The notes: generated by a model not told the origin, from the letters alone. A stretch of DNA of 64,000 nucleotides from a virus (IMGVR_UViG_3300027806_000003:15355-79354); one strand, 5' to 3'. Positions 1 through 64,000 are shown, counted from the first letter of the stretch. Numbers and translations: made by a program.

Positions 1-990
1 GTTCATCGCCAGCGGCAGAGCCGTCTGCATCGCGCCGATCAGGCGGTTGTGGGCGCCCTCGAATCGCTCGTACATCACCACCGACATGCCAAGGATGTCC
101 TGGCTGCCCAGCGAATCGCCGCCCACGGGCGCGTTTTGGTTCAGGTGGATCAGCGTGCGGCCGAACTGCGGCTCAGCGCCGAAGGAGTCGGGGCTCACGT
201 TTGTGGGCGTGTACGTCAGCAGCGCGTACTGGCGATCCCAGACGCGGCGGTTGACCGGCGACAGTCCGCGGCTGGCGTTGTTGCGGAGCATGCCCGCGAT
301 GTTCACGCGATCCACGCGGAAGATCTCGGCCATCTGCTCGGCCGTCAGCCGCGTGGGGTTGCGTCCGGCGTTGCCACCGGCAAACGTCGCCCTCACGGCG
401 GTGTTGAGGCTGATCGGGCGGACAAGGTCCTGGCTGATCGTCAGCGTGTTGGGGCGGATGCCGCCGCTGGCCTTCTCGGCGGTGTCCAGACCGGTCAGGA
501 TCGTGCCGATGATGTCCGCGGCCGGATCGGTCCAGGCCGTGCCGACGGTCACGCCCGTGGTTCCCGACGGCGGGAAGTTCGTGTCGTTGTTCAGGTACGC
601 GCAGGTGTTCTGCTCGTAGGCCCGGACCACGTGCAGCGCGGTCAGTTCGGCGGCCTGCCGCTCGGCCTGATCGCGGATGCGCTCAGTCTGGCCGCGCAAC
701 TTGGTTTCGTCAAGGGCCAGCTCGAGGTTGTACTCCTCAAGGTCGTAGGACAGGAACTCCTGCGCACCCTCGATGCGGATGGCGCTGCCGCCGTATCCGC
801 GCTTGGCGCTGCTGATGCCCTGGCTGTACACGGCCGTGGGCGTGATCGGGATCTGCCCGTTGGTGTTCTCGACCACCAGCGCGGGGAAGATCGACAGCGC
901 GACCGCGCCCTGCGTCAGCAGGCTGTACTTGCGGATCTCACCGTCAAGGTCGGGGCGGATCAGGCCGCCGTTTGCGGGGACAAATGCCAT
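1..990 (-). CDS. Major capsid protein (3' end outside window)
   Basis: Manual translation MAFVPANGGLIRPDLDGEIRKYSLL... is open to the window edge, with an AAGGA RBS. It follows the protease/scaffold and cement genes. It is absent from the ORF track because it has no stop in the window. Confidence 0.75.
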   Translation of the reverse strand, partial: MAFVPANGGLIRPDLDGEIRKYSLLTQGAVALSIFPALVVENTNGQIPITPTAVYSQGISSAKRGYGGSAIRIEGAQEFLSYDLEEYNLELALDETKLRGQTERIRDQAERQAAELTALHVVRAYEQNTCAYLNNDTNFPPSGTTGVTVGTAWTDPAADIIGTILTGLDTAEKASGGIRPNTLTISQDLVRPISLNTAVRATFAGGNAGRNPTRLTAEQMAEIFRVDRVNIAGMLRNNASRGLSPVNRRVWDRQYALLTYTPTNVSPDSFGAEPQFGRTLIHLNQNAPVGGDSLGSQDILGMSVVMYERFEGAHNRLIGAMQTALPLAMN

Positions 991-1061
991 GGTCAGAGTC
1001 CTTTCTTGTTCGTTCTACCCGCACCGGCGGGCCGTTGTGTTCTTCGCGTCATATCGGGCAC

Positions 1062-1097
1062 GGCCGCGGGGACGCCGTCCTTGGCGTCCCCGCGGCC
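1062..1097. terminator. Strong GC hairpin between cement and capsid genes (terminator or mRNA stabiliser)
   Basis: GGCCGCGGGGACGCC-gtcctt-GGCGTCCCCGCGGCC inverted repeat; no clear U-tract. Confidence 0.4.
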
Positions 1098-1119
1098 CCT
1101 GATGGGTCGTGGGTTGTTC

Positions 1120-1692
1120 TCAGTGCTGGATGATCAGCACTTCGTCGGTCGCCGCCAGCGTGCCAGCGGCGATGGTCACGTTGTTGCCGCTGGTCGTGAC
1201 CGTCAGCGCGCCGCGATCCAGGCCCGCGTTGCTGCGCACCTGCACCTGCAAGCGCGTGCGGTTGGTCGGCTGGCCGACGTTGATCGTCACGCTGTTGGCC
1301 GCCGCGCCCGTGGCCGGACCGGCGTACAGGGTCGTGCGTCCGTCGTTGTCGAAGAGGATCGCCTCGATCTGCGCGTTGTCGCCGCTGGCCGTCTGCAGGG
1401 CAAGGCCGATGGCATCGCCGGTCGGCGTGGCGGTCACCTTGCCCGCGGCGTCGGGGTAGATCAGGCTCAGCGCCGTGATCGAGCCCGAGGCGGTCACCAG
1501 CGTTGCGCCGGGCACGCTGCGCGGCCAGAGGTCACCGGCCGCGCCCGCGGCGATCGTCGGTCCGATGTTGATCCCGTGCGGCACCTGGCCGGCACCGTTG
1601 AGGGTGATCGTCCCCGCCGCGCTGATGCGGCCCAGGCGAAACTGCGGGATGGCCACGGCGGCCGTTCCCTTGATCGTGTCGGTCACGTTCAT
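1120..1692 (-). CDS. Capsid cement/decoration protein (DUF2190-like) with C-terminal extension
   Basis: G/A/T-rich, motif YPDAAGKVTAT..IGLALQTA; lies between scaffold and capsid; RBS present. Confidence 0.6.
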   Translation of the reverse strand: MNVTDTIKGTAAVAIPQFRLGRISAAGTITLNGAGQVPHGINIGPTIAAGAAGDLWPRSVPGATLVTASGSITALSLIYPDAAGKVTATPTGDAIGLALQTASGDNAQIEAILFDNDGRTTLYAGPATGAAANSVTINVGQPTNRTRLQVQVRSNAGLDRGALTVTTSGNNVTIAAGTLAATDEVLIIQH

Positions 1693-1815
1693 GCGATTCC
1701 TTTCCTTCTCGTGTGTGCGTGTGCGGCGACCGGTCCCGTGCCGCCTCTGGGGCCGTGGCCGGTGCCGTTGAATGTCGTTGCCCGTTTCTTAAAGGCTCTT
1801 GCCGCTCGGCCTTGG

Positions 1816-2388
1816 TCAGCCGATGAGTTCCTGCTGCAACCGCGTCAGGGCGGCGGGACCGAGCAGCCGATACCCGGCCGCGTCGACCTTCTTGGCCTCA
1901 GCGCAGGCGGCGGCAAAGTCGGCCTTCTTGGCGTACGCCGTGCGGATGAGGCCTTCGGCCCGCTCGGTCGTCCCCTTGGCGTGCTCATGGCCATCGCCCC
2001 CCACGCCGCCGCTGGCGTTGCCCTGCGGGCCCTGGCCATCCTTGGCCAGGCTCAAGGGCGATCCATGCCCCTGGGCGGCGGTCGATGCGGCCTTCTTCAC
2101 CCCCGCGTCGATCTTGCTCTGCAGCTCCGCGTTCTTGGCCTGCGCCGCCTTGAGCCGCTCACCGAGCACATCGGCAAAGGCCGCCTTGGCCTGGCTCATC
2201 GTCGCGCCGCGCTCCGCCTGGCCGAGCACAAACTCCGCCTCGCCCGCAAACGCGCTCTTGAGTTCGCCGATGCTCGCGGGCTTGTCCTGTGCCGCGGCGG
2301 GCGCGTTCTTGACCGCATCGGCCTGAATCTGGCCGATGAGCTCTTCGCCGCCGTCGAGCTTCTTGAGTCCTTCCAGTGTGATCGCCAT
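1816..2388 (-). CDS. Nested in-frame scaffold protein (Nu3-like)
   Basis: Internal ATG (MAITLEGLKK) preceded by AGGAAAGGA RBS. Confidence 0.65.
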   Translation of the reverse strand: MAITLEGLKKLDGGEELIGQIQADAVKNAPAAAQDKPASIGELKSAFAGEAEFVLGQAERGATMSQAKAAFADVLGERLKAAQAKNAELQSKIDAGVKKAASTAAQGHGSPLSLAKDGQGPQGNASGGVGGDGHEHAKGTTERAEGLIRTAYAKKADFAAACAEAKKVDAAGYRLLGPAALTRLQQELIG

Positions 2389-3471
2389 GATCTGTCCTTT
2401 CCTGCCGCGCTGCGCGGCCCCTTGGGTGCTCCCGGCGTTGCCGCCGCGCTGGCCGCGGTCCGCCCGCAGCCGCGTCAGCGCCGCCGTCATATCCGTCACA
2501 ACTTCATCAGCCAGCCCCGTGGCCACCGCTGCCGCACCGGCGTACCAGTGCTTGCCGCTCCAGCCCTGGGCGATCTCCACGCTCACGCCGCGGCCAGCGG
2601 CCACCGCCCGTGTGAACTGCTGGCCCATGGCGTCGATGTCTTCCTGGAGCGCCGCCCGCTGCGCATCGGTCAGCGGCTCGCGCCAGAGCTTCTTGATTTC
2701 GGCGCTGGCCACCGTCTGCGGCTTGATCCCCGCAATGGCCATCGCCTCAAAGTCCTCGTACCAGTGCAGCACCGTGCCGATGTTGCCGACCTCGGCATCG
2801 CTGGTGAGCATGAACAGCCCGGGCGTGCAGGCAGAGGCCAGGTAGAACGCGGCGCTCATGCACCAACCCGCGCACATCACGCCGATGGGCTTGAGATCGC
2901 GCAGAGCCCTGATCTTCTCGGCCAGCGGGTCACACCCTATCGCTTCGCCACCGGGCGAATCGGCCACCATCAGAATCTCGCCAATCCGGGGGTCTTCGAT
3001 CCCCGCCGTGATCGCCGCGGCGATGTCCTCGTACGCCGATGCAAACGCGTTTCCGTTGCTGTCGATCGCGTCCTCGACCTTGCGCACCAGCGGCCCGCTG
3101 AGCGGGATCACCAGCGTCGAGCCCTGCACGCTCGGCGCGGCCAGCGACCAGTACTCGCGTCCCGCGTAGGTGCTCAGGGCCTGCTTCTCGGGCGCGCTTG
3201 CGCCACCATCGTCGTGCCAGGCCGCCGGGCCAACAGCCGGTCCAGCAGCCGGGCCAGCATCCGCGCTCGCGTGATCAAGGCCGGCTCGTTTGCTCCGCAC
3301 AGACCGTCCAGCGTCTCGCATCATCGCGTTTAGGCGGATGCCGCCGCTGACATCGACCTCGCCAAGGGCGACCCGGCGCAGCATCGCCCGCGCGGCCATG
3401 TCAACGCTCGCCTCGAGCATCCACGGCTTATTCATCGCAGCCGCGGCACGGATTGTCCAGTGCATGTGCAT
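1816..3471 (-). CDS. S49-family prohead protease with C-terminal scaffold (lambda gpC/Nu3-like)
   Basis: DSPGG, CMSAAFYLAS and VGNIG S49 motifs; coiled-coil C-terminus. Confidence 0.9.
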   Translation of the reverse strand: MHMHWTIRAAAAMNKPWMLEASVDMAARAMLRRVALGEVDVSGGIRLNAMMRDAGRSVRSKRAGLDHASADAGPAAGPAVGPAAWHDDGGASAPEKQALSTYAGREYWSLAAPSVQGSTLVIPLSGPLVRKVEDAIDSNGNAFASAYEDIAAAITAGIEDPRIGEILMVADSPGGEAIGCDPLAEKIRALRDLKPIGVMCAGWCMSAAFYLASACTPGLFMLTSDAEVGNIGTVLHWYEDFEAMAIAGIKPQTVASAEIKKLWREPLTDAQRAALQEDIDAMGQQFTRAVAAGRGVSVEIAQGWSGKHWYAGAAAVATGLADEVVTDMTAALTRLRADRGQRGGNAGSTQGAAQRGRKGQIMAITLEGLKKLDGGEELIGQIQADAVKNAPAAAQDKPASIGELKSAFAGEAEFVLGQAERGATMSQAKAAFADVLGERLKAAQAKNAELQSKIDAGVKKAASTAAQGHGSPLSLAKDGQGPQGNASGGVGGDGHEHAKGTTERAEGLIRTAYAKKADFAAACAEAKKVDAAGYRLLGPAALTRLQQELIG

Positions 3472-3482
3472 TCGCTATTGGC

Positions 3483-3519
3483 CCTCTACCCATGTGCGCC
3501 CGTGGAGCATTTCTATGTC
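3483..3519 (-). promoter_or_regulatory. Conserved 37-bp motif, copy 1 (putative late promoter)
   Basis: 35/37 identical to 7140-7176; both copies sit immediately upstream of a late gene start. Confidence 0.55.
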
Positions 3520-3550
3520 CCACCGCCAAACCGGCCCCGGCATCAACAGA

Positions 3551-3627
3551 TCCTCCCCCGCCCAATGTCAGATTGGCCACCGGGGGAGGTGCCGCGGCCC
3601 AAATGTCATCCGGGCGGCGGAGGGGGT
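3551..3627. repeat. REP-like palindrome family B, copy 1 (others at about 7194-7255, 23759-23812, 25381-25459)
   Basis: CTCCCCCG..CGGGGGAG-GTGCCG...GGCGGAGGGGG double hairpin recurring four times. Confidence 0.75.
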
Positions 3628-3631
3628 GCCT

Positions 3632-3670
3632 TTATTTGGTCATTTGACCATTTGACCATTTGCCCATTTA
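3632..3670. repeat. Octamer tandem repeat (CATTTGAC)n; also at 8636-8667 and 27109-27140
   Basis: Directly visible tandem units. Confidence 0.9.
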
Positions 3671-5284
3671 CGCTGGCGGCGCTTCGCCGCCAGCGGCCTG
3701 CCCCGGCATCAGCACCGGCTCGATGCCCAGCTCGCGCTCGATCTGCTTCTCCTCGCTGCGTTCGGCGGCCACGCTGGCAAAGTCGCGCCCGCCCAGCTGC
3801 TCGGCCGCTTCGCGCTTGCTCATGAGGTTCGCGTTGATCGCCGCCACCAGCGCCGCCGTTTCCTTCTCCGGGTCAAACTGGCCGATGGGCAGGCCGATCC
3901 AACGCACGCCCATCGGGCTCAGCGCGTAGGCCAGTTCCTCTTGGCTCAGGTCGATCACGCCCGCCTGTGCCCACTCGCGCAGCCGCCACTGGTAGATCGG
4001 CGTGCACACGGTCCGCACAAAGTGCGCGAGCATCATCCGCCGCTGCCGCATCGCCATCATCACCGCCGTGCGTCCGGCGTAGGCGGTGCTCTGGCTGGCG
4101 TCCAAAAGCAGCACCTCCAGCGGCAGGCCCATGCGTGCCCCGAGCACCCGCAGGAGCATCCGCAGGCTCGCGTCAAACGACGCGGCCGGGTACGGGCTCT
4201 GCGGCATGCTCACGGTCACATCCTCGCCGACATAGTGCACGCTGCCGGCCGGAATCTCCGTTGTCTTGGGGCTTGTCGGGCTGGCCGCCGCCTTGGGCGC
4301 GCCGATGAGCTTGCTGGTCAGTTCCGGCCTGCGCGAAGAAACAAACGCCGCCAGCCGGCTGGTCAGGTCGCACGCGCGGATGTACGAGCTGAACATATCG
4401 TCGGCGCCGATGATCCGGTCGATCATCCCGCGCAGCGCGCTGATGCCGCGGTACTGGCTGATCTGATCCACGTTGGCCAGGAACACCGCGCCGCGTGCAT
4501 CCACGCGCGCGATGTCCACACCGCTGGGCGCTCCGTCCTTGAACACCGCCACGCGGTAGCGCAGCACGCGTCCGTCGCTATCGAGCTCCAGCCCCTCGGC
4601 GGGCAGATCCTGGCTCTGCGGCCTTGGCCCGTCTCGCACGAGCTGGGCCTCGACCATCTGCACCGTCCGGCCGACCATCGGATCGTCGCCCTGGGCCACC
4701 AGCACGCCCAGCACATCGCCGTCGAGGTACGCCGAGCGCAGCAGTTCCCGCTGCAGGCCGCCCCAGCCGTACCGCCGTGTGTGCTCGGCGCTCTCGGCCC
4801 ATTCGATGAACAGGTCTTCGATCATCCGGGCCTTTTCGGTCCGGCCCTGCGGCAGCACGGTCTGCGGGTACAGCCCATCACCCAGCAGGAAGTCCACCGC
4901 GCTGTCGATCAGCAGCGGCGCGAGCGTGGTGGTGCGGTAGGCCTGGCGTGCGGCCCGGGCCACGGCGCTCCTTCGCGTCTCGCGGGCGATGCGTCCGCCC
5001 GCGGCATTGATCGGCGGCGAATCCTTGCGACCGCTCGACAGATCCGCTTCGGTGTACGGTGCGGAGCCTCGGCCGGCCGAGCCGAACGACGCCGACGCGT
5101 TCATGGCCGCGCCCGGTGCGGCCCTGCGCCACTGCCTGACCGACTCAAGTTGCGCCCGCGCAAGAGCCGACCGCGCCTCCGCCTCGGCCTTGTCGGCTCG
5201 CAGGCTCGCCACGCTGGCATCCACGCGCGCGCGCGTGATCGTCGCCACCTTGCCGGTGGGCCTGTTGCTGGGCTTGCTGGCCAT
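3668..5284 (-). CDS. Portal protein, lambda family
   Basis: DGDV, LQMVEA-like, GLELDSDGR..Y, QYRGIS, PIYQW and DPEKE motifs. Start uncertain (5284 or 5377). Confidence 0.9.
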   Translation of the reverse strand: MASKPSNRPTGKVATITRARVDASVASLRADKAEAEARSALARAQLESVRQWRRAAPGAAMNASASFGSAGRGSAPYTEADLSSGRKDSPPINAAGGRIARETRRSAVARAARQAYRTTTLAPLLIDSAVDFLLGDGLYPQTVLPQGRTEKARMIEDLFIEWAESAEHTRRYGWGGLQRELLRSAYLDGDVLGVLVAQGDDPMVGRTVQMVEAQLVRDGPRPQSQDLPAEGLELDSDGRVLRYRVAVFKDGAPSGVDIARVDARGAVFLANVDQISQYRGISALRGMIDRIIGADDMFSSYIRACDLTSRLAAFVSSRRPELTSKLIGAPKAAASPTSPKTTEIPAGSVHYVGEDVTVSMPQSPYPAASFDASLRMLLRVLGARMGLPLEVLLLDASQSTAYAGRTAVMMAMRQRRMMLAHFVRTVCTPIYQWRLREWAQAGVIDLSQEELAYALSPMGVRWIGLPIGQFDPEKETAALVAAINANLMSKREAAEQLGGRDFASVAAERSEEKQIERELGIEPVLMPGQAAGGEAPPA

Positions 5285-5366
5285 ATCGCGTTCGTCCCTT
5301 TCCTGCGTTGCCCTTTGCTGCTCTGCCGCTTTGCCCTTTGCTGCTTTGCCGATTTCCCGCGGCCGC

Positions 5367-5888
5367 TCAGCCCTCAAGTCTGCGCAGTTCCGCCTCCAGC
5401 GCGTACCGCTCGGCCACCAGCGGCTGGAAGATCTCCCGCTCCTGCCGCTCGTATTCGCGGGTGATCTCCTGCGCCTCGGCCTCGAGCTCTTCGATCACAC
5501 GCTGGCGGCGAGAGTGGACCTCAGCCCGGCGCATCTTGATGTCGTCGAGCACCTTGACCGGCTGGCCGATCTGGTTCAGCCGCGTGCGGATCTGCCCCGC
5601 CCGCTCGGCCCGCGCACGCTCGGACCGCTCGTGCTCATCGGCATCGTGCGCATCGACCTCCGCGGCCGCATCCAGCTCAACATCGGTCTCAACATCCAGC
5701 TCGGTATCCTCCACCTCGGCACCGCTCGCACGCGCGCCCGCACCAGCATCAAACGGCGCGGTCTCATCCCCGGCCCCGGCGTCGAGCCCACCATCACCCA
5801 CCGGCGTCTCCGCCGAGCCGCTGCGGTTTGTCGTGCTCAGCGTCGAGGCCGCCGCCGCGTTCACGTCTTTATTGCCCTTGCGTGCCAT
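5367..5888 (-). CDS. Acidic/coiled-coil hypothetical late protein
   Basis: ATG with AAGGA RBS; contains the 61-bp copy of integrase sequence. Confidence 0.6.
   Translation of the reverse strand: MARKGNKDVNAAAASTLSTTNRSGSAETPVGDGGLDAGAGDETAPFDAGAGARASGAEVEDTELDVETDVELDAAAEVDAHDADEHERSERARAERAGQIRTRLNQIGQPVKVLDDIKMRRAEVHSRRQRVIEELEAEAQEITREYERQEREIFQPLVAERYALEAELRRLEG
5798..5858. repeat. 61-bp exact direct repeat of 16724-16784 (inside the integrase gene)
   Basis: CCACCGGCGTCTCCGCCGAGCCGCTGCGGTTTGTCGTGCTCAGCGTCGAGGCCGCCGCCGC is present at both loci. Confidence 0.95.
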
Positions 5889-5950
5889 GCTTGTTTCCTT
5901 TTTGCTGCTCTGCTGATTTGCTGCTCTGCTGCTTTGAGCTTCGAGCTTTG

Positions 5951-6193
5951 TCACACCACCACGTACGTCCCGCCCCCTCCGCCATTTCCATCACCGACCA
6001 CCGCCGCCAGCATGCGTTCTTCCTCGATAAGCATGTTCAGAAGGCTCGTCAGCGAACCGCTGGCCACGCTCATGTTCCCGCCGCTGACATCCGGCCCGAT
6101 CTTCTGCGTGACTTCGACGATGTGCAGCCGCAGCCGCGCCAGCCGCTCGGCATCGCTCGAGTACCCCCGCCAGTCCGCGTACTGCCACATCAT
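5951..6193 (-). CDS. Head completion protein (gpW-like)
   Basis: 80 aa, helix-hairpin-helix pattern, between terminase and portal; ATGA overlap. Confidence 0.5.
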   Translation of the reverse strand: MMWQYADWRGYSSDAERLARLRLHIVEVTQKIGPDVSGGNMSVASGSLTSLLNMLIEEERMLAAVVGDGNGGGGGTYVVV

Positions 6194-7137
6194 GCCGCCT
6201 CCTGTTCCGTCGCTGCGTCCGCCATCACCGCCGCCCCCCCCGCCGCCGCTCCTGTTCCGCTCCGCTCCTGCAGCGCCGCCGCCGCCCGCTGGCGGATCTC
6301 CAGAACCAGTCTTTCGGCCGCGGCCCGCAGCCGGGCCACGCTCATGGGGTCCATCGGCTCGGCGCTCTGGCCGCGATCGCCGGCAACCGGCGGCAGGCCG
6401 ATCTGTGCCAGGTCCGCCAGCCTCTGCGGCAGGCCGTCGATCGCGTGCACCAGCCCGGTGATCACCTCCTGCATCGCCGCCGCCGCCGCCGCACGGTCGA
6501 CCAGCTCGCCGCGCTTGGCCTTCATGGCCATGTCCTTGCTGCTGGCCTCGATCAGCGCCCGCAGGTTCTCCGCGTCGGCCCTGGTCACCCGGCCGATCAC
6601 TTCATTCAGCACGCCCGGGTCGCTGATCGATCGCCCGTTCAAGATCCGCATCAGGCTCAAGCCCTCGCCCTGCTCGGCCGCTTCCATGGCGGCCTCGCGC
6701 ACAGCCTGCCCCAGCGGCGACTGGTCAAAGGCCTGCCCCGGCTCACCGGCTGCGGTCGACCGACCACGGCCACCCCCGCGCCCATTCACACGCCCGGCCA
6801 CGCTCCCGGCTACGCCGGACGCACGCCGCACGCCCCGCACGTTCAGCCCGGCCTTGCGTCCGGCCCCGCCGCGAATCCCGCCGTGGTGCGCGGTCGACGC
6901 CTCCACCGCGTGCGCCTTGTTCGTCTTTGCCCAGGCCACGCACGCGGCCTGGTCGAACCACCTCTGCCCGCTGGCCACCGTGTGCGGCATGCCGTCGCGC
7001 ACGTAGTTCGTGATCGTCATGCGCGTCACGCCCAGCGCCTTGGCCAGCTTGCCCGCGCCGACCATTCCCGGCGGCGGCAACTCCGCCGCCCCCGGCAGCA
7101 GCAGCCCACCCGAGTTGTCGCCGGTTGCTTCGCCCAT
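6190..7137 (-). CDS. Terminase small subunit (Nu1-like)
   Basis: N-terminal wHTH LAKALGVTRMTITNYVRDGMP..FD..ACVAW and a GELVD motif. Confidence 0.75.
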   Translation of the reverse strand: MGEATGDNSGGLLLPGAAELPPPGMVGAGKLAKALGVTRMTITNYVRDGMPHTVASGQRWFDQAACVAWAKTNKAHAVEASTAHHGGIRGGAGRKAGLNVRGVRRASGVAGSVAGRVNGRGGGRGRSTAAGEPGQAFDQSPLGQAVREAAMEAAEQGEGLSLMRILNGRSISDPGVLNEVIGRVTRADAENLRALIEASSKDMAMKAKRGELVDRAAAAAAMQEVITGLVHAIDGLPQRLADLAQIGLPPVAGDRGQSAEPMDPMSVARLRAAAERLVLEIRQRAAAALQERSGTGAAAGGAAVMADAATEQEAA

Positions 7138-7139
7138 GG

Positions 7140-7336: not shown

Positions 7337-7342
7337 AACGCC

Positions 7343-43093: not shown

Positions 43094-43096
43094 GGC

Positions 43097-56515: not shown

Positions 56516-56919
56516 GAGGTTGCTCCTGCGGCCCTCTTGACCGCGAACGCCAGCGGTGCCTCGATCCGCACCTTGCCGGCCTTGCCCTTGGGCCACCAAC
56601 GCACGACGAGCGTCTTCTTGGTTCCGGCCTCGGCAAGCGCGGCCATGTCCTTCGCGCTGATGGTGATCTCGACCGGATCCCCGGCGCTGACCGTGACGCT
56701 CAGGCTTGTCTGGCGGTGCAGGCCGTACAGCTCGCGGATCTTGGACTCCAGCGCTGGGTCCGCGTGGCGGCCGTTGGCGTTATCTTCGATCGCTGAGAGC
56801 CTCGCCTCGCGGATCTCCAACAGCCTCGCGGCCTGCTCGAGAGTGAAGCCGCACTGCTCGCGAAGCGTGCGGAGCTCTGCGCCGATGCGGATGTGCTCCT
56901 GGCGGTGCTCCATGCTCAC
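56512..56919 (-). CDS. XRE HTH fused to a CsrA-like domain
   Basis: LRTLREQCGFTLEQAA..L.I; C-terminal L.V...GD.VEI...GKVRIEAP...VKR. Confidence 0.55.
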   Translation of the reverse strand: MSMEHRQEHIRIGAELRTLREQCGFTLEQAARLLEIREARLSAIEDNANGRHADPALESKIRELYGLHRQTSLSVTVSAGDPVEITISAKDMAALAEAGTKKTLVVRWWPKGKAGKVRIEAPLAFAVKRAAGATS

Positions 56920-58709
56920 TTGCGCACCTTGCCCTTCACCGGCTTCGCGGGCTTGGCGGCCTTGGCGGCGGGAGCCTGTGCGGGCTCGGCGGCGGTGGGG
57001 GCATCCACCCAGCCCTTCGGCCTGGCGATCTTCTTGGAGTCGATCAGCTTCTGGAGCGTGGCCTGGCGGATGACCTTCTCGTCCACCGCCGGCGGGAGCG
57101 GCGCGGCGATGTTCAGGGCCTTGCGGAGGGCGTCGCGCTTGTCGAAAGCGTTGTCTGTGTCGGCGAGCAGTTCTGCGATCGCCTCCACGATGCTCTCCGG
57201 GCTGGAGGTCGTCGACTTGGCCTTCATCGCGATTTTGCCCAGCTCGCCGATGTCCGGCTCCGCGATCAGCCGGAGGCGTTGCTGCCAGTGGGCTTGGCTC
57301 AGGGGTGCGTACCTGTTGTACTTGGGCTTCTTCGCCAGCAAGGTGTCGGAGAAGCTGCTCTCGAAGAGCATCACCGTCATCGCGGTCGCGACCTCCGGCC
57401 GTGCCGTCAGAGCGGCCTCGACGTACGGCATGTACTGCTCGACGCGCTCGTGGTTCGCATTCCTGATCGCGTCATTGACGCGGTAGTTGACCTCGTACTC
57501 GGGCAGGTAGTTCGTCTCCGAGCGATCGGCCGAACGTTCTGCGGCCTTGACGCTCTTTTCGGCGCGTCGGATCCTGGCGGCGGAGAGTGCGGCCTCGGCG
57601 CTGACGCCCGCGGGGACTAGACGGCTCTCCTGCAGCATCTTGATGTTCAGCGGGGCCTCGGTCTTCTCGACCGCGTTGACGATCGCCGTCGCCGCGGTCT
57701 TCAGGGCCTTCTCCGCCGCGGCGGCTTTCGCCTTGTAGCACGTCGGGTTCCCGCAGTACGGCCCGTCGTCGTCCTTCGAGCGCCTGCCTGTCCCGCCGTC
57801 CATCTTGTCGTACAGGTCGCCGGCGGCTGGCAGTTCGCCCTTGCCTCCGAACAGCTGCATGTCGTTGGCGCTGTTGGCCGGGCAGGTGTTGCACGCGGGG
57901 GCTTGAACCCCGGGCACGTTCACGGCCTTGTCCCAGGCGACGTCGGCGAGGCTGAGCATGCGGCGCGTCACCAGGTCCTTGACCTGGTCGAGCTCCATCG
58001 GCAGGCGTCCGGGCTCCTCGGCCGCGGCCTGGCGAGCGATGTCCTCGCGAACCTTCGCATCGGCGAGCCTGGCGATCACCCGGGCGTGCGTCGCCGGCAA
58101 TTGGCCCGAGCGGATCAGCTCGCGGATCGGCTTGCTCATCCGCGCGATGTACAGGTGGTCTCGGACCCAGCGCTCGCTCTGGCCGAGCCTGGCGGCGATC
58201 GCGGCGACCCGCTCATCGTCGGGGACCAGGTCGGGGTTTCTGTCGTAGAGCTCGCATACCGCGTCTGCTTTCTCTATGTCGCTCAGCGCCTCGCGGTGGA
58301 GGTTCTCGGTGAGCCTCGCGTCCGCGTCCGAAACGTCCGCCGGCACGACGACGGCGTTGATGTGCGTCCACTTCAGCATGTTCGCGGCCCGCATGCGGCG
58401 GAACCCGAAGACGAGCTCGTATGAGGCGAGTGCTCCGCCCTGGGTCTTGCGCTTGTCGTCGGGCAGGCGGCGAACCCCGACGGGCTGAAGCTGGCCCAGG
58501 CGGTGCATGGTCTCGGCCAGTTCATTCAGCGCCGTCGCTCCCTGCGGCGTGTCGTACGACCTGGCGTCGCGGTCGTTCTTCATCTCATCGACGATGATGT
58601 CGGCGATCGCGATCGACGCGGGCTCGGCGGTGCGGTATCCGCCGGCGTAAGGGATGCTCGGCGGCAGTGCGGCGGCGGCGGGCTCGGGCTTTGTGGCGGT
58701 CTTCGGCAT
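56916..58709 (-). CDS. ParB/Spo0J-family protein
   Basis: GQLQPVGVR, GFRRMRA, ENLHRE.LS.IE.A and HTH; CxxC...CxxxxC. Confidence 0.88.
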   Translation of the reverse strand: MPKTATKPEPAAAALPPSIPYAGGYRTAEPASIAIADIIVDEMKNDRDARSYDTPQGATALNELAETMHRLGQLQPVGVRRLPDDKRKTQGGALASYELVFGFRRMRAANMLKWTHINAVVVPADVSDADARLTENLHREALSDIEKADAVCELYDRNPDLVPDDERVAAIAARLGQSERWVRDHLYIARMSKPIRELIRSGQLPATHARVIARLADAKVREDIARQAAAEEPGRLPMELDQVKDLVTRRMLSLADVAWDKAVNVPGVQAPACNTCPANSANDMQLFGGKGELPAAGDLYDKMDGGTGRRSKDDDGPYCGNPTCYKAKAAAAEKALKTAATAIVNAVEKTEAPLNIKMLQESRLVPAGVSAEAALSAARIRRAEKSVKAAERSADRSETNYLPEYEVNYRVNDAIRNANHERVEQYMPYVEAALTARPEVATAMTVMLFESSFSDTLLAKKPKYNRYAPLSQAHWQQRLRLIAEPDIGELGKIAMKAKSTTSSPESIVEAIAELLADTDNAFDKRDALRKALNIAAPLPPAVDEKVIRQATLQKLIDSKKIARPKGWVDAPTAAEPAQAPAAKAAKPAKPVKGKVRK

Positions 58710-58774
58710 GCGGGGCTCCTGTGGGTGTGGGGGCGAATCCCGCCGGCGGCCTTGCGGACGCCGGCGAGGTGTGG

Positions 58775-59173
58775 TCAGCGGGGAGCGTCGGTGAGGGTCG
58801 GGTTGGCAGGATTGCGACGCTCAGAAAACGCGCCGAGCGGCTTGGTCAAGTCCGGCCACTCGGCCCAGTACCCGATGCCACGCTCGCCCATGTGGCTGCG
58901 CTGCTCATCGGTCAGGGCCTCGCACAGCGGGATCTCGAACGTGTTCGAGCTCGCTCGCATGATCGCGGCTTCGTGCGGCTGGGTCGTGTCGAGCCACGTG
59001 TGAACAACGACCTTCCTGTACTCGCCCTCCGGGCCGATGTGCGGCCCGCTGCTGCTGATGACGACGCCCGGCCGCGGCCCTTCCCACTCGGCCCCGAAGA
59101 CGAGGACGATCCGGCCTGTCGAAACCTCCCGCTTGCTGAAGATGCTGCTCTGCTCTGCGTTCTGCTCTGGCAT
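58775..59173 (-). CDS. Hypothetical protein
   Basis: AGGAG RBS. Confidence 0.65.
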   Translation of the reverse strand: MPEQNAEQSSIFSKREVSTGRIVLVFGAEWEGPRPGVVISSSGPHIGPEGEYRKVVVHTWLDTTQPHEAAIMRASSNTFEIPLCEALTDEQRSHMGERGIGYWAEWPDLTKPLGAFSERRNPANPTLTDAPR

Positions 59174-59257
59174 GTGCTACTCCTGAGTGTGCTTGCGGCC
59201 ACGCGCCGCCGAATCCCTCGCCGCGGGCTTTCGCCTGCGGCGGGGAGGAGAGAGAGA

Positions 59258-60478
59258 TCAGCGGGACTTGGCGGGCTTCTTCGCGGCCTTCTTCTTGGCC
59301 GGCTTCTTGGGCTTCTCGGTGGGCGAGGCCTCGGGCTCCGCGGCAGGCGTGAAGGGCACGCGGCGATCCTCGGGCCAGCCCATCATGATGTGAAGCTCGG
59401 CGACTCCGAAGAGCGTCTCGAACGCGTCCTGGTTGCGGGCGAAGATGCGCAACAGGGCGTTCCACATCCGCTCGCCTCCGGAGAGGCGCAGGCGTTCGGC
59501 GATGATGGAGCCGAGGTGGCCCCAGACCTCCGAGTGCAGATCGGGGAGACTGGTGAGGATCGCCGGCGCATCGGCACTGGTCTCGAACACATGGCGGAGC
59601 TTGCGGATCAGGCGGTCGGGCGTGCCCAGGCCCCAGCTCGCAAGCTGGTCGAGCGCCTCCTGGACATCGTCCTCGTCGATGTTGTTGATCGCGGCCGGCC
59701 CCACGCTCGCGGTCCAGGGCACGGTCAACCAGGCGTGATCGAACCCCGCCTCTGCGAGCTCATCGCCGAGCCAGACCTCGGCGGTCGGGTCTGCGTCAGG
59801 CGCGGCGCCCTGGCTATCGGCGTCGTCGTCGTCGTCAGTCTGCTTCGGCTTTTCGATCGCCGGCAGGCGGATGTCGCCGCCCTTGATGTCCGTCGCGATG
59901 CCGCGGCGAGCGCAGAAGTCCGCGAGGCAGTCGCGTAGGTGGTCGAGTTGCTCCGGCGTGATCTCGCCGGCGAGCATGGCCTGCTTGACGGCCTGGCCCT
60001 CGTGCTGGTCCATGGCCTCTTTGACGGTGCGCATGCCGACTTTCAGCCATGCGGCCGAGTACATCTCGCCCATCAGGTCTCGCAGCTCAACGGCCTCCCA
60101 CGCCCGGGGGTCGGGCTTGAAGCCGTCGGCGAGCCCTCCATCGCACGCACGATCGACCAGGTCGAACAGGTCCTGCGTCATCTTCTTCGTCAGGTCGAGT
60201 TCGGATCGGCGCTGGCGATCGAGGTTCGTGAACGTTGCCTTTGCGCGGCGGAGGTCCATCGCGATGCCGGCGACGCGCTCGAGGAGTGCGGGGTCTGCGT
60301 GGGCGTCCTTCTCCTCGGGGAGCTCGTCGAGCGACTTGCTCAGCGTCTCCTCGCGGTCCTTCACCGCGCCCTTTGCCTGGTTCCAGTCCTCCTCCATCTC
60401 GGCGACGCGGGCCTGGCTGGCCTTCACTCCGTCGCGAAGGGTGATGATGCGGATCGTCGTGGTTGCGTCGAAAGCCAT
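59258..60478 (-). CDS. Hypothetical protein (N-terminal coiled coil, Lys/Ala tail)
   Basis: AGGA RBS; coding-like composition. Confidence 0.7.
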   Translation of the reverse strand: MAFDATTTIRIITLRDGVKASQARVAEMEEDWNQAKGAVKDREETLSKSLDELPEEKDAHADPALLERVAGIAMDLRRAKATFTNLDRQRRSELDLTKKMTQDLFDLVDRACDGGLADGFKPDPRAWEAVELRDLMGEMYSAAWLKVGMRTVKEAMDQHEGQAVKQAMLAGEITPEQLDHLRDCLADFCARRGIATDIKGGDIRLPAIEKPKQTDDDDDADSQGAAPDADPTAEVWLGDELAEAGFDHAWLTVPWTASVGPAAINNIDEDDVQEALDQLASWGLGTPDRLIRKLRHVFETSADAPAILTSLPDLHSEVWGHLGSIIAERLRLSGGERMWNALLRIFARNQDAFETLFGVAELHIMMGWPEDRRVPFTPAAEPEASPTEKPKKPAKKKAAKKPAKSR

Positions 60479-60530
60479 TGCGTGGTTCCTGCTCGGTGTG
60501 GTGTGTCGCCGGCCGCACGGCCGGCGTGCG

Positions 60531-62030
60531 TCAGGCCTTGGCGGCCGTCGGTTGCTGAGTTGTGTTGGTCGGCGCGGTAAACGCGGTGTGCTCGGCGAAG
60601 TCGAGCAGCTCGCGGCGGCCGTCCCTTATGCCCCAGCGGGCTGAGATGCGTTTGCCCTTGAACGACTCGATCGAGGTGCTGAAGGTGAACATGTCACCGG
60701 CCTCGGTTCTGACCTTGAAGAGCACCCAGGCCTGCCCTTTCGCCGTCGTGCCGTTCTTCACGGCTTGGACCTCCATCACGGTGAGGATGCCCGTCTGCTC
60801 GCCCTTCTTGGCGGCCGGCTGTTCATCGCGCTGGCGCTCGGCCCTCGCGGCGGCGTCGGCGGCATCGGCGGCGGAGCCTCGGGCACGCGTGGGCTTGGGC
60901 TTCGTCGGCGCTGCTGGTGTCTCCCGGCCGGGCTGCGCGGTCGGGGGTTGCGGAGTGGGGGGCGGAGGCGGTGTAGATGCAGCCGGAGCCGACTCACCAC
61001 GGGTGGGGGTCTCGGCGACGGGGGCGGTCGTGGTGGCGGAGGCCTTGGCGGCGGGCTTCGGGGCCGGCAGGTCCGCGGGCTTGCGGCCCGCGGCCTGGTG
61101 CTGCTGAAGCAGCTCGATCATGCGGAGGCACTCGTCAGGCTCCGCTTTGCGCGCGGTCAGGTCGATGCCGATCTGTGCGCCCAGGCAGTGGACGATTCGG
61201 CGGACCTCGGCGTTGATCTCGTCCACCGTGCCTGGCATCTGCCCGGCCCACTGCTTGACCGCCTGGACGAGTCGTGGCGCTGGGAGCAGCCGATCGTCCA
61301 CCCCGACCGGGCGAGGGGCGGGGTCGATGACCTCGGCTCCGTCCCTCAGCCAGCCGATCAGCCGCCGGCCGAACGCCTCGTCGGGCTTCTCCATCATTTC
61401 GTTGTGCAGATCGCTCCAGCGTGTCTTCGTCACCGTCATGATGGCCCCGTCCATCTTGACGCCGATGTCGAACTCGTACTCCATGCCGTCGCGCTGGATC
61501 GGAGCCATGCCAAGCCGACGCACGGTGGTCTTGCCGTCGACGACCTCCTGGACGTGCTCCATCTTCTCTCGCAGCGTGACCAGCAGGTGGCACTTGCAAC
61601 GGAGCATGGTCTCGACGAACTGGTTGTGCAGCGGCGTGACCTCGCGCCAGGCGGTGAAGCCCTTCGGGTCGCCGCTCTTGGTCCGGGCTCGATCGACGCG
61701 GTCGAGCGCTCCGTCCTTGCCCGACCAGGCGTGCGTGGCGGAGTCGATGATGATCACACCGTATCCCGCGGCCTCCGCGGCCTCGATCGCCTTGCAGTAC
61801 TCGCTCGGGCTGAATGAGGTGAGGTTGACCTGGTCAAACTTGAACCTGTCGGCGTAGAGCGAAGACGAGTAGTTCTCGGTGTCGATGAACGCGATCGGCT
61901 TGCCGATCGCCTCCGAGATGCCCGTGGCGATCCGCAGGGCGGAGTAGGTCTTGCCGCTGTTGGTCGCGCCCGACAGCACCATGCGGAGCAGGCGCTGAGA
62001 CTTCTGTGCGGGCTTGAAGACGTACGTCAT
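60531..62030 (-). CDS. AAA_24/Sak4-like ATPase with Pro-rich linker
   Basis: GATNSGKT, IDTE, IIDS.TH.W and EYEFD motifs. Confidence 0.85.
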   Translation of the reverse strand: MTYVFKPAQKSQRLLRMVLSGATNSGKTYSALRIATGISEAIGKPIAFIDTENYSSSLYADRFKFDQVNLTSFSPSEYCKAIEAAEAAGYGVIIIDSATHAWSGKDGALDRVDRARTKSGDPKGFTAWREVTPLHNQFVETMLRCKCHLLVTLREKMEHVQEVVDGKTTVRRLGMAPIQRDGMEYEFDIGVKMDGAIMTVTKTRWSDLHNEMMEKPDEAFGRRLIGWLRDGAEVIDPAPRPVGVDDRLLPAPRLVQAVKQWAGQMPGTVDEINAEVRRIVHCLGAQIGIDLTARKAEPDECLRMIELLQQHQAAGRKPADLPAPKPAAKASATTTAPVAETPTRGESAPAASTPPPPPTPQPPTAQPGRETPAAPTKPKPTRARGSAADAADAAARAERQRDEQPAAKKGEQTGILTVMEVQAVKNGTTAKGQAWVLFKVRTEAGDMFTFSTSIESFKGKRISARWGIRDGRRELLDFAEHTAFTAPTNTTQQPTAAKA

Positions 62031-62078
62031 CGGTGCTCCTGGTCTCGTGGCGTTGTGGGGTGGTGTCGCAGCGGGCGC

Positions 62079-62378
62079 TCAGCTCGCCCGGCGGGCCTGG
62101 GCGGTCTCAAGCTCGCGTGTCAGGTAGAGGAGACGATCGGCCTGCATCTGTGCGGTGCGGGCTCGCGCGTCGCTCTCAGCTTGGATCTGGCGCACCTGCT
62201 GCTCGAGCTTGTTGACGCTCTCGAGCGCGTCGGCCTGCAGTTCAGCAAGCTCACGGCGCGTCGCTTCAAGCTCGCCGGCTCCCCGGAACCAGCCGAGCGT
62301 GTACCCGACTCCGAAGCTGGCGGCCAGCACGCCGCTGACTGCGAAGAAGATGAGCAGGGGTTCGAGGTTCGGCATCAT
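62079..62378 (-). CDS. TM + coiled-coil protein
   Basis: Hydrophobic N-terminus; GGAG RBS. Confidence 0.6.
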   Translation of the reverse strand: MMPNLEPLLIFFAVSGVLAASFGVGYTLGWFRGAGELEATRRELAELQADALESVNKLEQQVRQIQAESDARARTAQMQADRLLYLTRELETAQARRAS

Positions 62379-62806
62379 CGGTTGTCTCCGTTGTGAGGTG
62401 CGGTGGGGTCGCCGAGTGCGGCGATCGCGAGGCTGATTGAGTGGTGGTTGCCGGGCTTCCAGGCGTCGGCGTGCCAGTGCGCCCTGGCGAAGGCGACGAA
62501 CGCGGCAAGGTCGGCGGTGGCGCGGGCGTAGGCCGGCTCGAGCTCCTGCTCGTCGAGGACGGCCTCGGCCAGGACCATCTCGATCGACGTCGGCTCCGGC
62601 GCGCTGGCCGGCATCGGCGGCGCGGCGACCGATAACTGCGTGGGTGAGGGCGTGGTGGGGTCAGAGAGGCTGTACAAGGTTGGGCCTCGCGGGGTCGGTT
62701 TGGGGTGTGTGGGAGTGGGGAGGGCGACACTCAGACACCGGCGCTCAGATCGCGGCGGCGTTGGTGGTCGAAAGCCCCGGCGAGAACCGCCGGGGCTCGT
62801 GGTCAT
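62375..62806 (-). CDS. Hypothetical protein (start uncertain)
   Basis: ATGA coupling to the next gene. Confidence 0.4.
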   Translation of the reverse strand: MTTSPGGSRRGFRPPTPPRSERRCLSVALPTPTHPKPTPRGPTLYSLSDPTTPSPTQLSVAAPPMPASAPEPTSIEMVLAEAVLDEQELEPAYARATADLAAFVAFARAHWHADAWKPGNHHSISLAIAALGDPTAPHNGDNR

Positions 62807-62809
62807 GCA

Positions 62810-63742
62810 TCAGGAGGCGGCGGCTCGCGTGCTCGCCAAGACTCGCGCGGCTTCGAAGGCGTCATCGCTCGGGACCGGCGCGTAGAGCTCGGTCGTGCGG
62901 CTGCTGCGATGTCCCAGCAGTGCCGCAGCCGCATCGAGGCCCGCCTTCGGGCGCACGGCCCTGGCCGCGGCGTGTCGGATCGCGTGCGTCGAGAATCGCT
63001 CAACACCGGCCTTCGCGCATGCCGAGTCGATCGCCCGCTGCAGCCACTGGCGGCTCCGCTTCTGCCCGCGAGGGTTCAACGGGCGGAACACATACTCGCC
63101 TCCGCTGGTTCGGAGTGCTCGCCTGACGGCCGTCAGCGCCGGCCCGACGAGGGGGATGAGGCGCGTGTGCCCCCGGTGGGCGTTTTTGTGCTGCCTCTTG
63201 GCGATGTACGCCTGGCGGCCCAGGTGCAGCTCGTCGCGGCGGAGCGTGAGCACTTCGCCGACCCTGCAGCCCGTCGCCGCCATGACCGCGACGACGTCGG
63301 CGTGGTGCTTGGGCATCAGCCCGACCAGGCGGCGGATCTGCTGGAGGCTCGGGACGTTCTTCTCCGCCGGCTTCCTGGCGGCGCTCTCCCTGGCGGCGAG
63401 GGGCAGGACGCTCAGCGCCGAAGCCGCGTCGGCGGCGGTCATGATCTCGCGCTCAACGGCCCAGCGGAGCATGCGCTGGACTCGGAGCGTCTGCTGGTTC
63501 GTGTAGCCGTGCGACCAGTCGCGCTTCGTGATCTGTTCATCTCGCCAGGCCTTGAGCGCCTTGGCCGTGATGTCCTCGGCCGCGGCCTTGTCGCCGAAGC
63601 TCTCGAGCAGGGCTCGCATGGTGCTTCGAATGTTCGCGGCCTCGCCGGTCGGTGAGCCATCGGCGCGGCGGTAGTACTTCTCGGCGTGCGCGCAGTACGT
63701 CACGACGAGCCGCTTGAGCGGCGTGCATTGCTTTGAGGGCAT
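62810..63742 (-). CDS. int: Tyrosine integrase
   Basis: TGCRVGE, HKN, HAIRH, LGH and Y; adjacent to a tRNA fragment. Confidence 0.93.
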   Translation of the reverse strand: MPSKQCTPLKRLVVTYCAHAEKYYRRADGSPTGEAANIRSTMRALLESFGDKAAAEDITAKALKAWRDEQITKRDWSHGYTNQQTLRVQRMLRWAVEREIMTAADAASALSVLPLAARESAARKPAEKNVPSLQQIRRLVGLMPKHHADVVAVMAATGCRVGEVLTLRRDELHLGRQAYIAKRQHKNAHRGHTRLIPLVGPALTAVRRALRTSGGEYVFRPLNPRGQKRSRQWLQRAIDSACAKAGVERFSTHAIRHAAARAVRPKAGLDAAAALLGHRSSRTTELYAPVPSDDAFEAARVLASTRAAAS

Positions 63743-63834
63743 GGGGGTGCCTCGATGTCGCGCGAGACTGAGTTCGTCGTCTGGGCCTCGCGCGGGCTCC
63801 GGCGGCGGCCGAGTTGCTAAGGCTCGGCGACACC

Positions 63835-63862
63835 ACTTTACGTTTCCGCGGCCCGCTGTCAA
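63835..63862 (-). promoter_or_regulatory. Putative sigma70 promoter for int/early operon
   Basis: TTGACA-16-TAAAGT. Confidence 0.5.
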
Positions 63863-63951
63863 GCCCGAGAAGATCGAGGCTGGTAGTATGTGCGGGCGCG
63901 GCGATGGCCACGGCTGGCAGCCTCGTGACGCTGAGGATCAGACAACGGCGC

Positions 63952-63998
63952 TCAGATTCCCAAGCTGAATGTCGGGAGTTCGATCCTCCTCGCCCGCT
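63952..63998 (+). other. att core: 3' half of tRNA-Gly(CCC)
   Basis: TT-CCC-AA-GCTGA, T-arm with GTTCGA, acceptor strand CGCCCGC-T; no D-arm or 5' acceptor strand upstream. Confidence 0.85.
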
Positions 63999-64000
63999 TT

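Follow-up and report, generated by a model that had tools for sequence, protein, structure and literature searches.

A virus-collection contig of 79,354 bp, from which the 64,000-nt stretch analyzed here (the window) is taken, carries the genes of two phages side by side. It raises the question of whether the record represents one large phage, one phage carried inside another, or two separate phages joined during assembly. The first-pass annotation favored the second reading, a cointegrate in which phage 1 (here phage A) had recombined into prophage 2 (phage B) through a shared tail-tip module. Positions below are those of the window unless they are given as genome positions, which refer to the whole contig.

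Two temperate phages on one contig

The two full sets of terminase, portal, protease, capsid and integrase genes that had been described earlier were found, one set per phage (Table 1). With all of these hallmark genes and a tRNA-derived att core in each half, both phages are predicted to be lambda-like (gpA terminase) temperate siphoviruses. Among the lambda-like hallmarks scored per half, the integrase of phage A matches by its N-terminal part only, as the phrog_1 match of this integrase-like gene covers residues 16-224 and a Pfam search gave no match. The major head gene of phage A straddles the window start, with its first 15 codons to the left, and is preceded there by 10.8 kb of phage A tail genes (genome 4574-15354) for which no family match was found. 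At the other side, phage B extends over the contig ends into genome 45-3512. Counted with one copy of the shared repeat described below (R), the phage A unit measures ~39,209 bp (~39.2 kb; A arc of 38,148 bp) and the phage B unit ~40,101 bp (~40.1 kb; B arc of 39,040 bp).

Table 1 Features of the window with their positions, strands and supporting evidence
Feature	Position	Strand	Evidence or remark
Phage A, in-window part	1..27367	-	Composition, 8-mer micro-arrays, own depth
A major head gene	1..990 (genome 15310-16344)	-	phrog_1005, E = 4e-24
A prohead protease (S49)	1816..3471	-	PF01343, E = 2e-17
A portal, lambda family	3668..5284	-	PF05136, E = 4e-32
A large terminase (TerL), gpA type	7343..9622	-	PF05876, 2e-62; PF20454, 3e-34
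A primase/helicase	12911..15748	-	DUF7146, Toprim_3, DUF5906
A attP core	~15832..15880	+	Reads as 3' half of tRNA-Asn(GTT)
A integrase-like gene	15982..17361	+	phrog_1, E = 7.6e-13
Second cassette gene, 162 aa, 9 Cys	27107..27595	-	
ATTTGACC x3 array	27109..27132	+	Supplies the final 8 codons and the stop codon of the 162-aa gene
Diverged homology	27146..27367	.	~75 % to genome 3291-3512, adjoining the identical block
R, copy 2	27368..28428	.	1,061/1,061 identical to genome 3513-4573 (alignment)
First cassette gene, 306 aa, 19 Cys	27592..28512	-	
Phage B	28429..63956	-	Composition, own depth
B tape measure protein (TMP)	30572..32602	-	phrog_8462, E = 5e-31
B major tail protein	34842-35282		
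B prohead protease-major capsid fusion	36991..39132	-	PF25209, 4.5e-21; PF04586, weak
B portal, lambda family	39129..40667	-	PF05136, E = 7e-50
B large terminase (TerL), gpA type	43813..45909	-	PF20454, E = 2e-18
B tyrosine integrase	62810..63742	-	PF00589, 7e-18; phrog_1, 9e-32
B att core, 3' 44 nt of tRNA-Gly(CCC)	63957..64000	+	Identical to genome 1-44

The two halves differ in composition, with a GC skew of -0.17 in A and +0.03 in B and a GC content of 0.69 and 0.67, respectively. The tetranucleotide profile of the phage A part correlates more highly with A than with B, that of the phage B part more highly with B, and tetranucleotide profile, GC and skew all change from A-like to B-like at both copies of R. 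In addition, 8-mer micro-arrays are confined to the phage A part, where contig depth is uniform and unlike that of B. Beyond R, the phages have only two short stretches in common, at 64-70 % identity.

The att core of phage A separates the primase gene from the integrase-like gene and is flanked on both sides by GCGCACCAC arm-type repeats (~15772-15800 and 15910-15952, by direct reading of the sequence), with an array detected by TRF at 15911-15952 beside the core. Having phage genes and arm-type repeats on either side, the core bears out the earlier description as attP. Logan contigs branch at 15838-15867, and their loose ends yield the matching 5' half of tRNA-Asn. An exact scan of genome contigs for the full-length tRNA-Asn, made in search of the host, returned 0 matches, and the names of the metagenome-assembled genomes (MAGs) among cluster members are in conflict (Phycisphaerales, Planctomyces sp. 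and Actinobacteria). In phage B, the integrase gene adjoins the tRNA-Gly core. The two contig ends share 44 bp, which are the 3' part of tRNA-Gly(CCC) and form the att core of phage B. Of what had been predicted to lie left of the window, two parts were confirmed: phage A tail genes are found there, and 27146-28443 recurs at genome 3291-4593, with 1,061 bp identical between the copies. The third part failed, as the expected intact tRNA-Gly(CCC) is absent and the contig ends instead in the 44-bp core that recurs at its other end.

A perfect repeat at the end of both late operons

R is a perfect direct repeat of 1,061 bp located at the end of both late operons, with copy 1 at genome 3513-4573, left of the window. 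The late genes of phage B are coupled (30572-32602, 29735-30568, 28509-29735, 27592-28512 and 27107-27595), with overlaps of 1 to 4 nt or small gaps, and the last of them ends in the threefold ATTTGACC array, as had been noted for a repeat specific to phage 1. The ATTTGACC 8-mer occurs in 8 copies in the window against 0.55 expected, all in A-type DNA. The repeat spans most of a Cys-rich gene of 305/306 aa and 76 codons of the next gene, and both genes are hybrids at its borders. The 306-aa gene in the window has a B-specific N-terminus of 28 aa, while its other copy (genome 3737-4654) has an A-specific N-terminus of 27 aa. In the 162-aa gene, the first 76 codons lie within R and the C-terminal half is of A type, with 72 % identity to the B-type copy at genome 3249-3740. 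Homology stops abruptly on one side of R and drops to ~75 % on the other. All four hybrid cassette genes are open and intact.

Read as a circle, the contig has the form A'-R-B'-R, in which the direct copies of R bracket a complete, attP-form phage A inside phage B, with no site-specific junction. This topology is seen directly in the contig and is exactly the one proposed earlier, with copies of a shared tail-end module flanking phage 1 inside phage 2. Neither a tRNA nor an att-like duplication was found at the junction, and Rfam, run over 10-30 kb with a permissive E-value, gave no tRNA-like or other credible RNA there, in agreement with the first-pass annotation. A BLAST search of the junction against phage records gave no match. 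Likewise, exact-probe scans for R in viral, genome and metagenome contigs and searches for related loci with the 306-aa protein and an alignment of the 162-aa family all gave 0 matches, results that have no bearing on rarity.

The proteins of the cassette show no family, fold or annotated relative in Pfam, PHROG and Atlas; the 306-aa protein had no match in the first two and no usable match in the last, and an AlphaFold2 model of the 305-aa protein was unusable (pLDDT 39). Among close relatives of phage B, the first cassette gene is hypervariable (38-95 %), and it is therefore plausibly a tail-tip or host-recognition gene, a suggestion drawn from position and variability. The earlier claim of module exchange is supported, as the identical cassette is common to both phages and little else is. 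A Cys-rich two-gene cassette has been exchanged recently between two co-occurring phages, which is ordinary mosaicism.

Sequencing depth and the joining of the two halves

Depth across R was read from Logan contigs (k=31) of four runs (X1, X2, X14 and X13) from four studies. In 4/4 runs, the Logan contigs break at R, which stands alone as a contig of exactly 1,061 bp, and a sharp step in depth is observed directly at both of its edges. The depths of A, R and B are ~226, 244.5 and 27.8 in X1 (A:B ~8.1), ~85, 137.1 and 50.7 in X2 (A:B ~1.7), ~63-92, 102.9 and 53 in X14 (A:B ~1.6), and 45-138, 285.6 and 43.4 in X13 (A:B ~2), so that the A:B ratio differs between samples. The depth of R is close to the sum of A and B (226 + 28 versus 244.5 in X1 and 85 + 51 versus 137 in X2); in X13 it exceeds this sum, which suggests further carriers of R in that sample. 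On the B side, one Logan contig of >20 kb begins at 28399 in X1 and likewise in X2, each with a depth of its own. Some joints between Logan contigs (e.g., 16784>25415 and 26485>27109) were considered as deletions and rejected, as their sides are only 20-44 nt long and lie at short dispersed repeats of phage A.

Contigs in other assemblies, whose content can be inferred from protein membership and lengths only, end at the same place. Partial proteins at contig ends (a 75-aa B-type N-terminus, a 134-aa B-type C-terminus and a 74-aa A-type N-terminus) stop exactly 141 nt inside R, and the longest contig carrying both B-type partial cassette proteins is 39,322 bp, exactly the length of the B arc (39,040 bp) with 141 nt of R added at each end. 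Other assemblers thus broke at R and continued across the attP junction of phage B. Variant A proteins come from contigs 38.3-39.2 kb long and variant B proteins from contigs of 39.9 kb, while the exact A proteins occur on 19-48 contigs and the exact B proteins on 7-28. Where relatives of either terminase lie on large contigs, the lengths of these contigs group at 35-45 kb, which is single-phage size. Finally, a contig of 98,848 bp (~79.3 kb + 19.5 kb) carries all exact proteins of both phages and may be the same arrangement with a host flank, and B-type contigs of 59.3-59.4 kb correspond to ~40.1 kb + 19.3 kb.

Most likely, the contig joins two separate phages that recently exchanged a cassette and were threaded into one sequence by the assembler. 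In a k-mer assembly graph, R would collapse to a single edge and the circle of phage A would become a loop hanging on phage B at R. The assembler may then have followed a path through the core, B-left, R, A, R, B-right and the core again, crossing R twice. The ends at the 44-bp core of phage B would be explained if B was present in the sample both excised (attP) and integrated (attL/attR). Perfect identity of the two R copies is what would be expected of one graph edge used twice. Alongside this letter-identical repeat, the switch in composition, the summed depth of R and the breaks at the repeat edges elsewhere are all observed. It should be noted that the graph of two circles sharing R is identical to that of a cointegrate, so the breaks at R do not discriminate and only depth does. 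The first-pass annotation had itself listed an assembly chimera at a shared repeat as its alternative, and had named a sharp step in coverage between the halves as evidence against its own proposal; with that step in each of the four runs and with breaks at R elsewhere, the alternative is now favored.

That phage A is truly nested in prophage B, or forms a cointegrate with it, in at least some of the population is unlikely, yet this reading has more in its favor than the other rivals. Here, RecA or a phage recombinase would have crossed the circle of phage A with prophage B within R, so that A is inherited within B at tRNA-Gly without the use of its own integrase and exits by the reverse crossover, with free copies of A accounting for the excess depth. 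The structure of the contig is exactly the product of such a single crossover, with 1,061-bp direct repeats, an attP-form A and four intact hybrid genes. Perfect homology of 1 kb between co-resident replicons is expected to give occasional crossovers. The junction stretch is present in 20 runs (14 studies), and words of both A and B occur in 20/20, so that the two phages always travel together in these runs; furthermore, A is deeper than B in 4/4 runs examined for depth, and the 98.8-kb contig holds proteins of both. However, the equal copy number of the halves expected of a cointegrate is not seen in the four runs, and an A:B ratio that reaches ~8 in X1 and varies across samples indicates that most copies of A are not in 1:1 fusion. 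The halves are linked by the path of the assembler alone, the 59.3-59.4 kb contigs suggest, by their lengths, host DNA with B and without A, and relatives of B appear to have an uninterrupted order of B tail, cassette and B-left, with linkage inferred from equal lengths. By analogy to lambda, a 79-kb unit would also be unpackageable cos-to-cos by gpA-type terminases in a head for ~40 kb, and piggy-backing could then be vertical only. The physical cointegrate and the integrase-independent piggy-backing of phage 1 proposed earlier are thus left unsupported, with a depth step at R and A:B ratios of 1.6-8.1. A fusion of part of the molecules may still be compatible with depth, as A is at least as deep as B in the four runs, which would also fit nested together with free A.

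The remaining explanations are far less probable. A single genuine phage or phage-plasmid of ~79 kb with two structural modules would agree with the circular-type contig ends and with halves that always co-occur, but it is very hard to reconcile with depths that differ up to 8-fold between the halves, and was rejected as contradicted by the depth step. The unlike composition of the halves, the presence of an integrase, att site, terminase, portal and capsid in each, relatives of 35-45 kb and the existence of single-phage-size contigs for each half speak against it as well. Least credible of all is site-specific joining, be it in tandem or by integration of one prophage into the other, with A using an att-like site inside B. 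While integration of a prophage into a prophage is documented in E. coli (PMC8112680), the attP of phage A is intact and unused at 15832-15880 with phage DNA on both sides, and the borders are formed by 1,061 bp of homology in coding sequence rather than by a short core. Site-specific tandem integration was therefore rejected, as no short core is duplicated at the A/B borders and the attP of A is unsplit.

Implications and comparison with known systems

For virus catalogs, the lesson is that an apparently complete 79-kb genome is most likely two 40-kb phages joined. As the contig ends at an att core, it has circular-type ends and can pass for a complete genome that carries direct terminal repeats. 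The record would bias genome-size statistics upward, mislead clustering and host prediction, and encourage spurious accounts of double phages. Screening for such cases is easy: the contig has circular-type ends, about twice the size of its relatives and two packaging modules, and both depth and composition change at a single long, perfect direct repeat. What is left of the biology is modest, namely two novel, co-occurring temperate phages with a recently exchanged Cys-rich tail-end cassette, whose hypervariable first gene is a candidate host-recognition gene. If nesting were real, the shared host-range cassette would also serve unrelated phages as a portable docking site that needs no integrase, by which A could bypass its own integrase and tRNA-Asn site and leave by reverse crossover.

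In lambdoid mosaicism, tail-end and host-range modules are swapped between unrelated temperate phages. The exchange described here is alike in its block of 100 % identity, which has sharp borders and closes the late operon in genomes that are otherwise largely distinct, in breakpoints that fall within genes and leave the frames intact, and in the hypervariable first gene, but differs in cassette proteins that are without family, fold or annotated relative.

The assembly itself resembles an artefact described for plasmids. Circular replicons that share a repeat longer than the insert size merge into a self-overlapping cycle of the assembly graph, which short reads can resolve only with the help of coverage (PMC6581055). 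As there, the repeat is apparently collapsed to one edge and traversed twice, the copies would be identical by construction, the joined parts are unequal in coverage, and contigs from other assemblers end k nucleotides into the repeat. In contrast to the plasmid and chromosome of that case, temperate phages are involved here, and the contig ends also fall at an att core.

On paper, the arrangement is also like the prophage-in-prophage cases of Nakamura et al. 2021 (PMC8112680), as one complete phage is contained in another prophage. In those cases, an integrase acts at attB-like sites and the insert lies between short core repeats, whereas the attP of the insert is unused here, its flanks are 1 kb of homology, and depth argues against a stable physical insertion.

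Composition of the contig and the shared repeat

The window starts at base 15355 and ends at base 79354 of one virus-collection contig of 79,354 bp, in which the minus strand carries almost all genes. As the DNA is 65-72 % GC, genes were called with a codon-bias model. Two complete head and packaging gene sets, unlike each other, lie in phage A and phage B, respectively, as the first-pass annotation had described for its phage 1 and phage 2. Self-comparison of the whole contig yielded one long direct repeat (genome 3291-4593 and window 27146-28443; "genome" denotes whole-record numbering), and the second copy of the junction stretch forecast left of the window is thus present. Alignment identified 1,061 consecutive identical bases, here termed R (window 27368-28428 and genome 3513-4573). 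The low-coordinate flank of R retains roughly 75 % identity for ~220 bp, and homology stops abruptly at the opposite flank. R takes in all of a 305/306-aa Cys-rich gene from codon 29 onward, plus the first 76 codons of the following 162/163-aa gene, together referred to as the cassette. The N-terminus of the former (27 or 28 aa) and the C-terminal half of the latter (72 % identical between A and B) are phage-specific, and all four open reading frames are intact. The window's 162-aa gene terminates in three copies of ATTTGACC, a motif that has eight occurrences in the window (0.55 expected) and is confined to A-type DNA, which agrees with the A-specific repeat reported earlier at the end of the last late-operon gene. 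At each R copy, base composition (GC content, skew and tetranucleotide profile) changes over between the A and B types; together with the repeat, this gives the circle form A'(38,148 bp)-R-B'(39,040 bp)-R. The junction yielded neither an att site nor a tRNA or any further RNA family, extending the earlier observation on att and tRNA.

Besides the cassette region, the only similarity between A and B in the self-comparison involves a 741-aa protein gene downstream of the A head genes and a 710-aa protein gene between the B terminase and portal, hence at different map positions. Nucleotide identity between these genes is 63.5 % over ~530 bp (genome 12733-13251 and window 42026-42547) and 70 % over a shorter stretch (genome 13452-13585 and window 42754-42884); no family was found for either protein.

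Phage A is also dotted with short tandem 8-mer arrays (ATTTGACC, CTTTGCTG, CGCTCATC, CACTGCGC), mainly at gene ends and junctions and nearly absent from B, which cause the contigs of Logan (k=31 contigs of public sequencing runs) to break inside A. A dispersed repeat family (~60-135 bp, 72-90 % identical) is found in A only, with some copies within open reading frames. Exact repeats of 61 bp (window 5798-5858 and 16724-16784, inside a late gene and the integrase-like gene) and 46 bp (window 7210-7255 and 25415-25460) produced apparent joints in the Logan contigs; such joints were rejected as deletions.

Features of phages A and B (window positions unless marked genome)
Phage	Feature	Position	Remark
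A	major head gene		spans window start
A	S49 protease	1816-3471	
A	portal	3668-5284	lambda-family
A	small-terminase-like gene	6190-7137	
A	large terminase	7343-9622	gpA-type
A	primase/helicase	12911-15748	
A	att site	15832-15880	reads as 3' half of tRNA-Asn(GTT)
A	integrase-like gene	15982-17361	
A	C5 methylase	17948-19738	
A	CII-like regulator	22686-23291	
A	8-mer arrays	3641-3669, 5296-5355, 5901-5936, 8635-8665, 10696-10767, 20431-20464, 23313-23350, 27109-27137	
A	dispersed repeats	8493-8602, 9639-9773, 23825-23925, 25307-25374, 26443-26575; genome 14454-14563	
B	tape measure	30572-32602	
B	major tail protein	34842-35282	
B	head decoration	36190-36891	
B	protease-capsid fusion	36991-39132	
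B	portal	39129-40667	
B	terminase	43813-45909	
B	ParB-methylase	48409-49815	
B	ParB-like gene	56916-58709	
B	tyrosine integrase	62810-63742	adjoins Gly core

Attachment cores and the cassette

Situated between the start of the primase gene and the integrase-like gene, the A att site has GCGCACCAC repeats on both sides; it is in the attP (phage-side) configuration, and the earlier assignment stands. In Logan contigs from one run of each of four studies (X1, X2, X13 and X14), forks occur within this core. In X1 and X13, loose ends at the core yield a 5' half with an acceptor strand complementary to the core end, and the cognate tRNA-Asn, as empty host site (attB) or integrated border (attL), is therefore present in these samples. 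For B, the first 44 bases of the contig reappear at its extreme end and read directly as the 3' part of a tRNA (CCC anticodon loop, T-arm and acceptor 3' strand), making the overlap an att core of the tRNA-Gly(CCC) type. No intact tRNA was found along the 79,354-bp contig, and the intact tRNA-Gly(CCC) anticipated left of the window is absent there. That region holds ~10 kb of A tail genes, none with a family match.

The cassette proteins are rare, forming four clusters among 5.8 billion sequences. In relatives of B, the terminase (98 % identity), tape measure (93 %), integrase (99 %), 408-aa gene (89-98 %) and 163-aa gene (92-98 %, with a B-type C-terminus every time) are conserved, whereas the 306-aa gene is only 38, 54, 68 or 95 % identical and is thus a hypervariable gene at the late-operon tip. 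Judged solely by its hypervariability between conserved neighbours at this tip, it may be a candidate for host recognition, a role that such a pattern fits. Its product has no Pfam, PHROGs or Atlas match, and the AlphaFold2 model of the cassette protein (pLDDT 39) was unusable. As the A-type N-terminus was found only alongside the R allele (94-100 %) and the GC content of R (0.63) is nearer to the B tail region, a B-like phage is the probable recent donor of the cassette to A. In both phages, small (+) genes (genome 356-2926 and window 26099-27077) occupy a moron-like position between the cassette and the att/early region; one (genome 825-1475) encodes a bacterial PH domain.

Depth and independent assemblies

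A 10-kb stretch around the window copy of R was searched by sampled words in public runs; 20 runs from 14 studies carry 93-99 % of the words, and none carries just half of the stretch. These runs, with near-identical DNA by 31-mers, date from 2017-2025 and are labelled freshwater, lake water or 'fungus' metagenome. Such wide recurrence points to a clonal host of cosmopolitan distribution or, alternatively, to a contaminant that recurs in laboratories or reagents. The MAG names on identical proteins conflict at phylum level.

Logan contigs of the four runs were placed on window 12001-32000, with zero differences from the window. R came out of every run as its own contig, exactly 1,061 bp long, overlapping the adjoining contigs by k-1.

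k-mer depth per contig in four public runs
Run	A side	R	B side
X1	212-230	244.5	27.8
X2	81-101	137.1	50.7
X14	63-92	102.9	53
X13	45-138	285.6	43.4

The A:B depth ratio differs among samples, from ~8 down to ~1.6, and R depth approximates A + B in X1 and X2; A and B therefore act as separate entities with one R each. Against the physical phage fusion proposed by the first-pass annotation speaks a sharp coverage step at R in all four runs, the outcome that annotation had itself named as refutation. In X13, a 2025 freshwater run, R depth is about twice A + B and the A contigs vary widely, suggesting that further cassette-carrying phages or several A variants are present.

Contig-end fragments of the cassette proteins break off exactly 141 nt within R (75 aa with a B-type N-terminus, 134 aa with a B-type C-terminus, and 74 aa with an A-type N-terminus). 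The longest contig carrying the two B-type fragments measures 39,322 bp, equal to the B arc (39,040 bp) + 141 + 141, so k=141 assemblers halted at both R edges and crossed the B att core uninterrupted, which shows that the B attP junction is real. A protein variants reside on contigs of 38.3-39.2 kb (predicted A unit 39,209 bp) and B terminase variants on contigs of 39.9 kb (predicted B unit 40,101 bp). Exact A proteins occur on 19-48 contigs, compared with 7-28 for exact B proteins, and a single 98,848-bp contig carries them all; for B-type proteins there is also a longest contig measuring 59.3-59.4 kb. Once 79.3 kb and 40.1 kb, respectively, are taken off, ~19.5 and ~19.3 kb remain, lengths that suggest one host flank with and without the A loop. 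Distant terminase relatives in IMG/VR (identity ≤36 % for A, ≤48 % for B) lie, among large contigs, mostly on contigs of 35-45 kb. From the 5,388-bp length common to one set of relatives' contigs, we infer that a B tail gene, B-type cassette and B-left genes are linked with no A between.

Origin of the fused contig

The A/B fusion in the contig is most likely an assembly product; what remains as biology is mosaicism of the ordinary kind, an exchange between two novel co-occurring temperate phages. Being longer than ordinary paired-end inserts, R would collapse to a single graph edge that can be entered in two ways and left in two, and the A circle would become a simple loop hanging on B. A path from B-left once through the A loop to the B tail genes would give exactly this contig, and the double passage of one edge would render both R copies identical by construction. 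Contig ends at the 44-bp core would be expected of a de Bruijn graph holding both the attP and the attL/attR forms of B, since paths merge and split where identity blocks begin and end.

Two circles sharing R and a cointegrate yield identical graphs, so breaks at R are neutral, and the case for separation is made only by depth and by the distinct contigs of single-phage size. A reaches at least 1.6x the B depth in all four runs, and both phages occur together in each of the 20 runs; a minority of A-in-B molecules, accompanied by extra free A, would be compatible with this as well but is unlikely. Occasional crossovers between co-resident genomes are in any case to be expected with 1 kb of perfect homology. 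The depth data speak against nesting as the main form. In lambda, the gpA-type terminase packages DNA from cos to cos. A 79-kb fusion would presumably not be packageable into a head sized for ~40 kb, leaving piggy-backing vertical only. Site-specific prophage nesting is known in E. coli (PMC8112680) and is ruled out here by the intact A attP and the borders in coding homology. The assembly reading has its counterpart in plasmid assembly, where replicons sharing a repeat pose the same problem: repeats common to several replicons generate self-overlapping cycles that short reads resolve only via coverage differences (PMC6581055).
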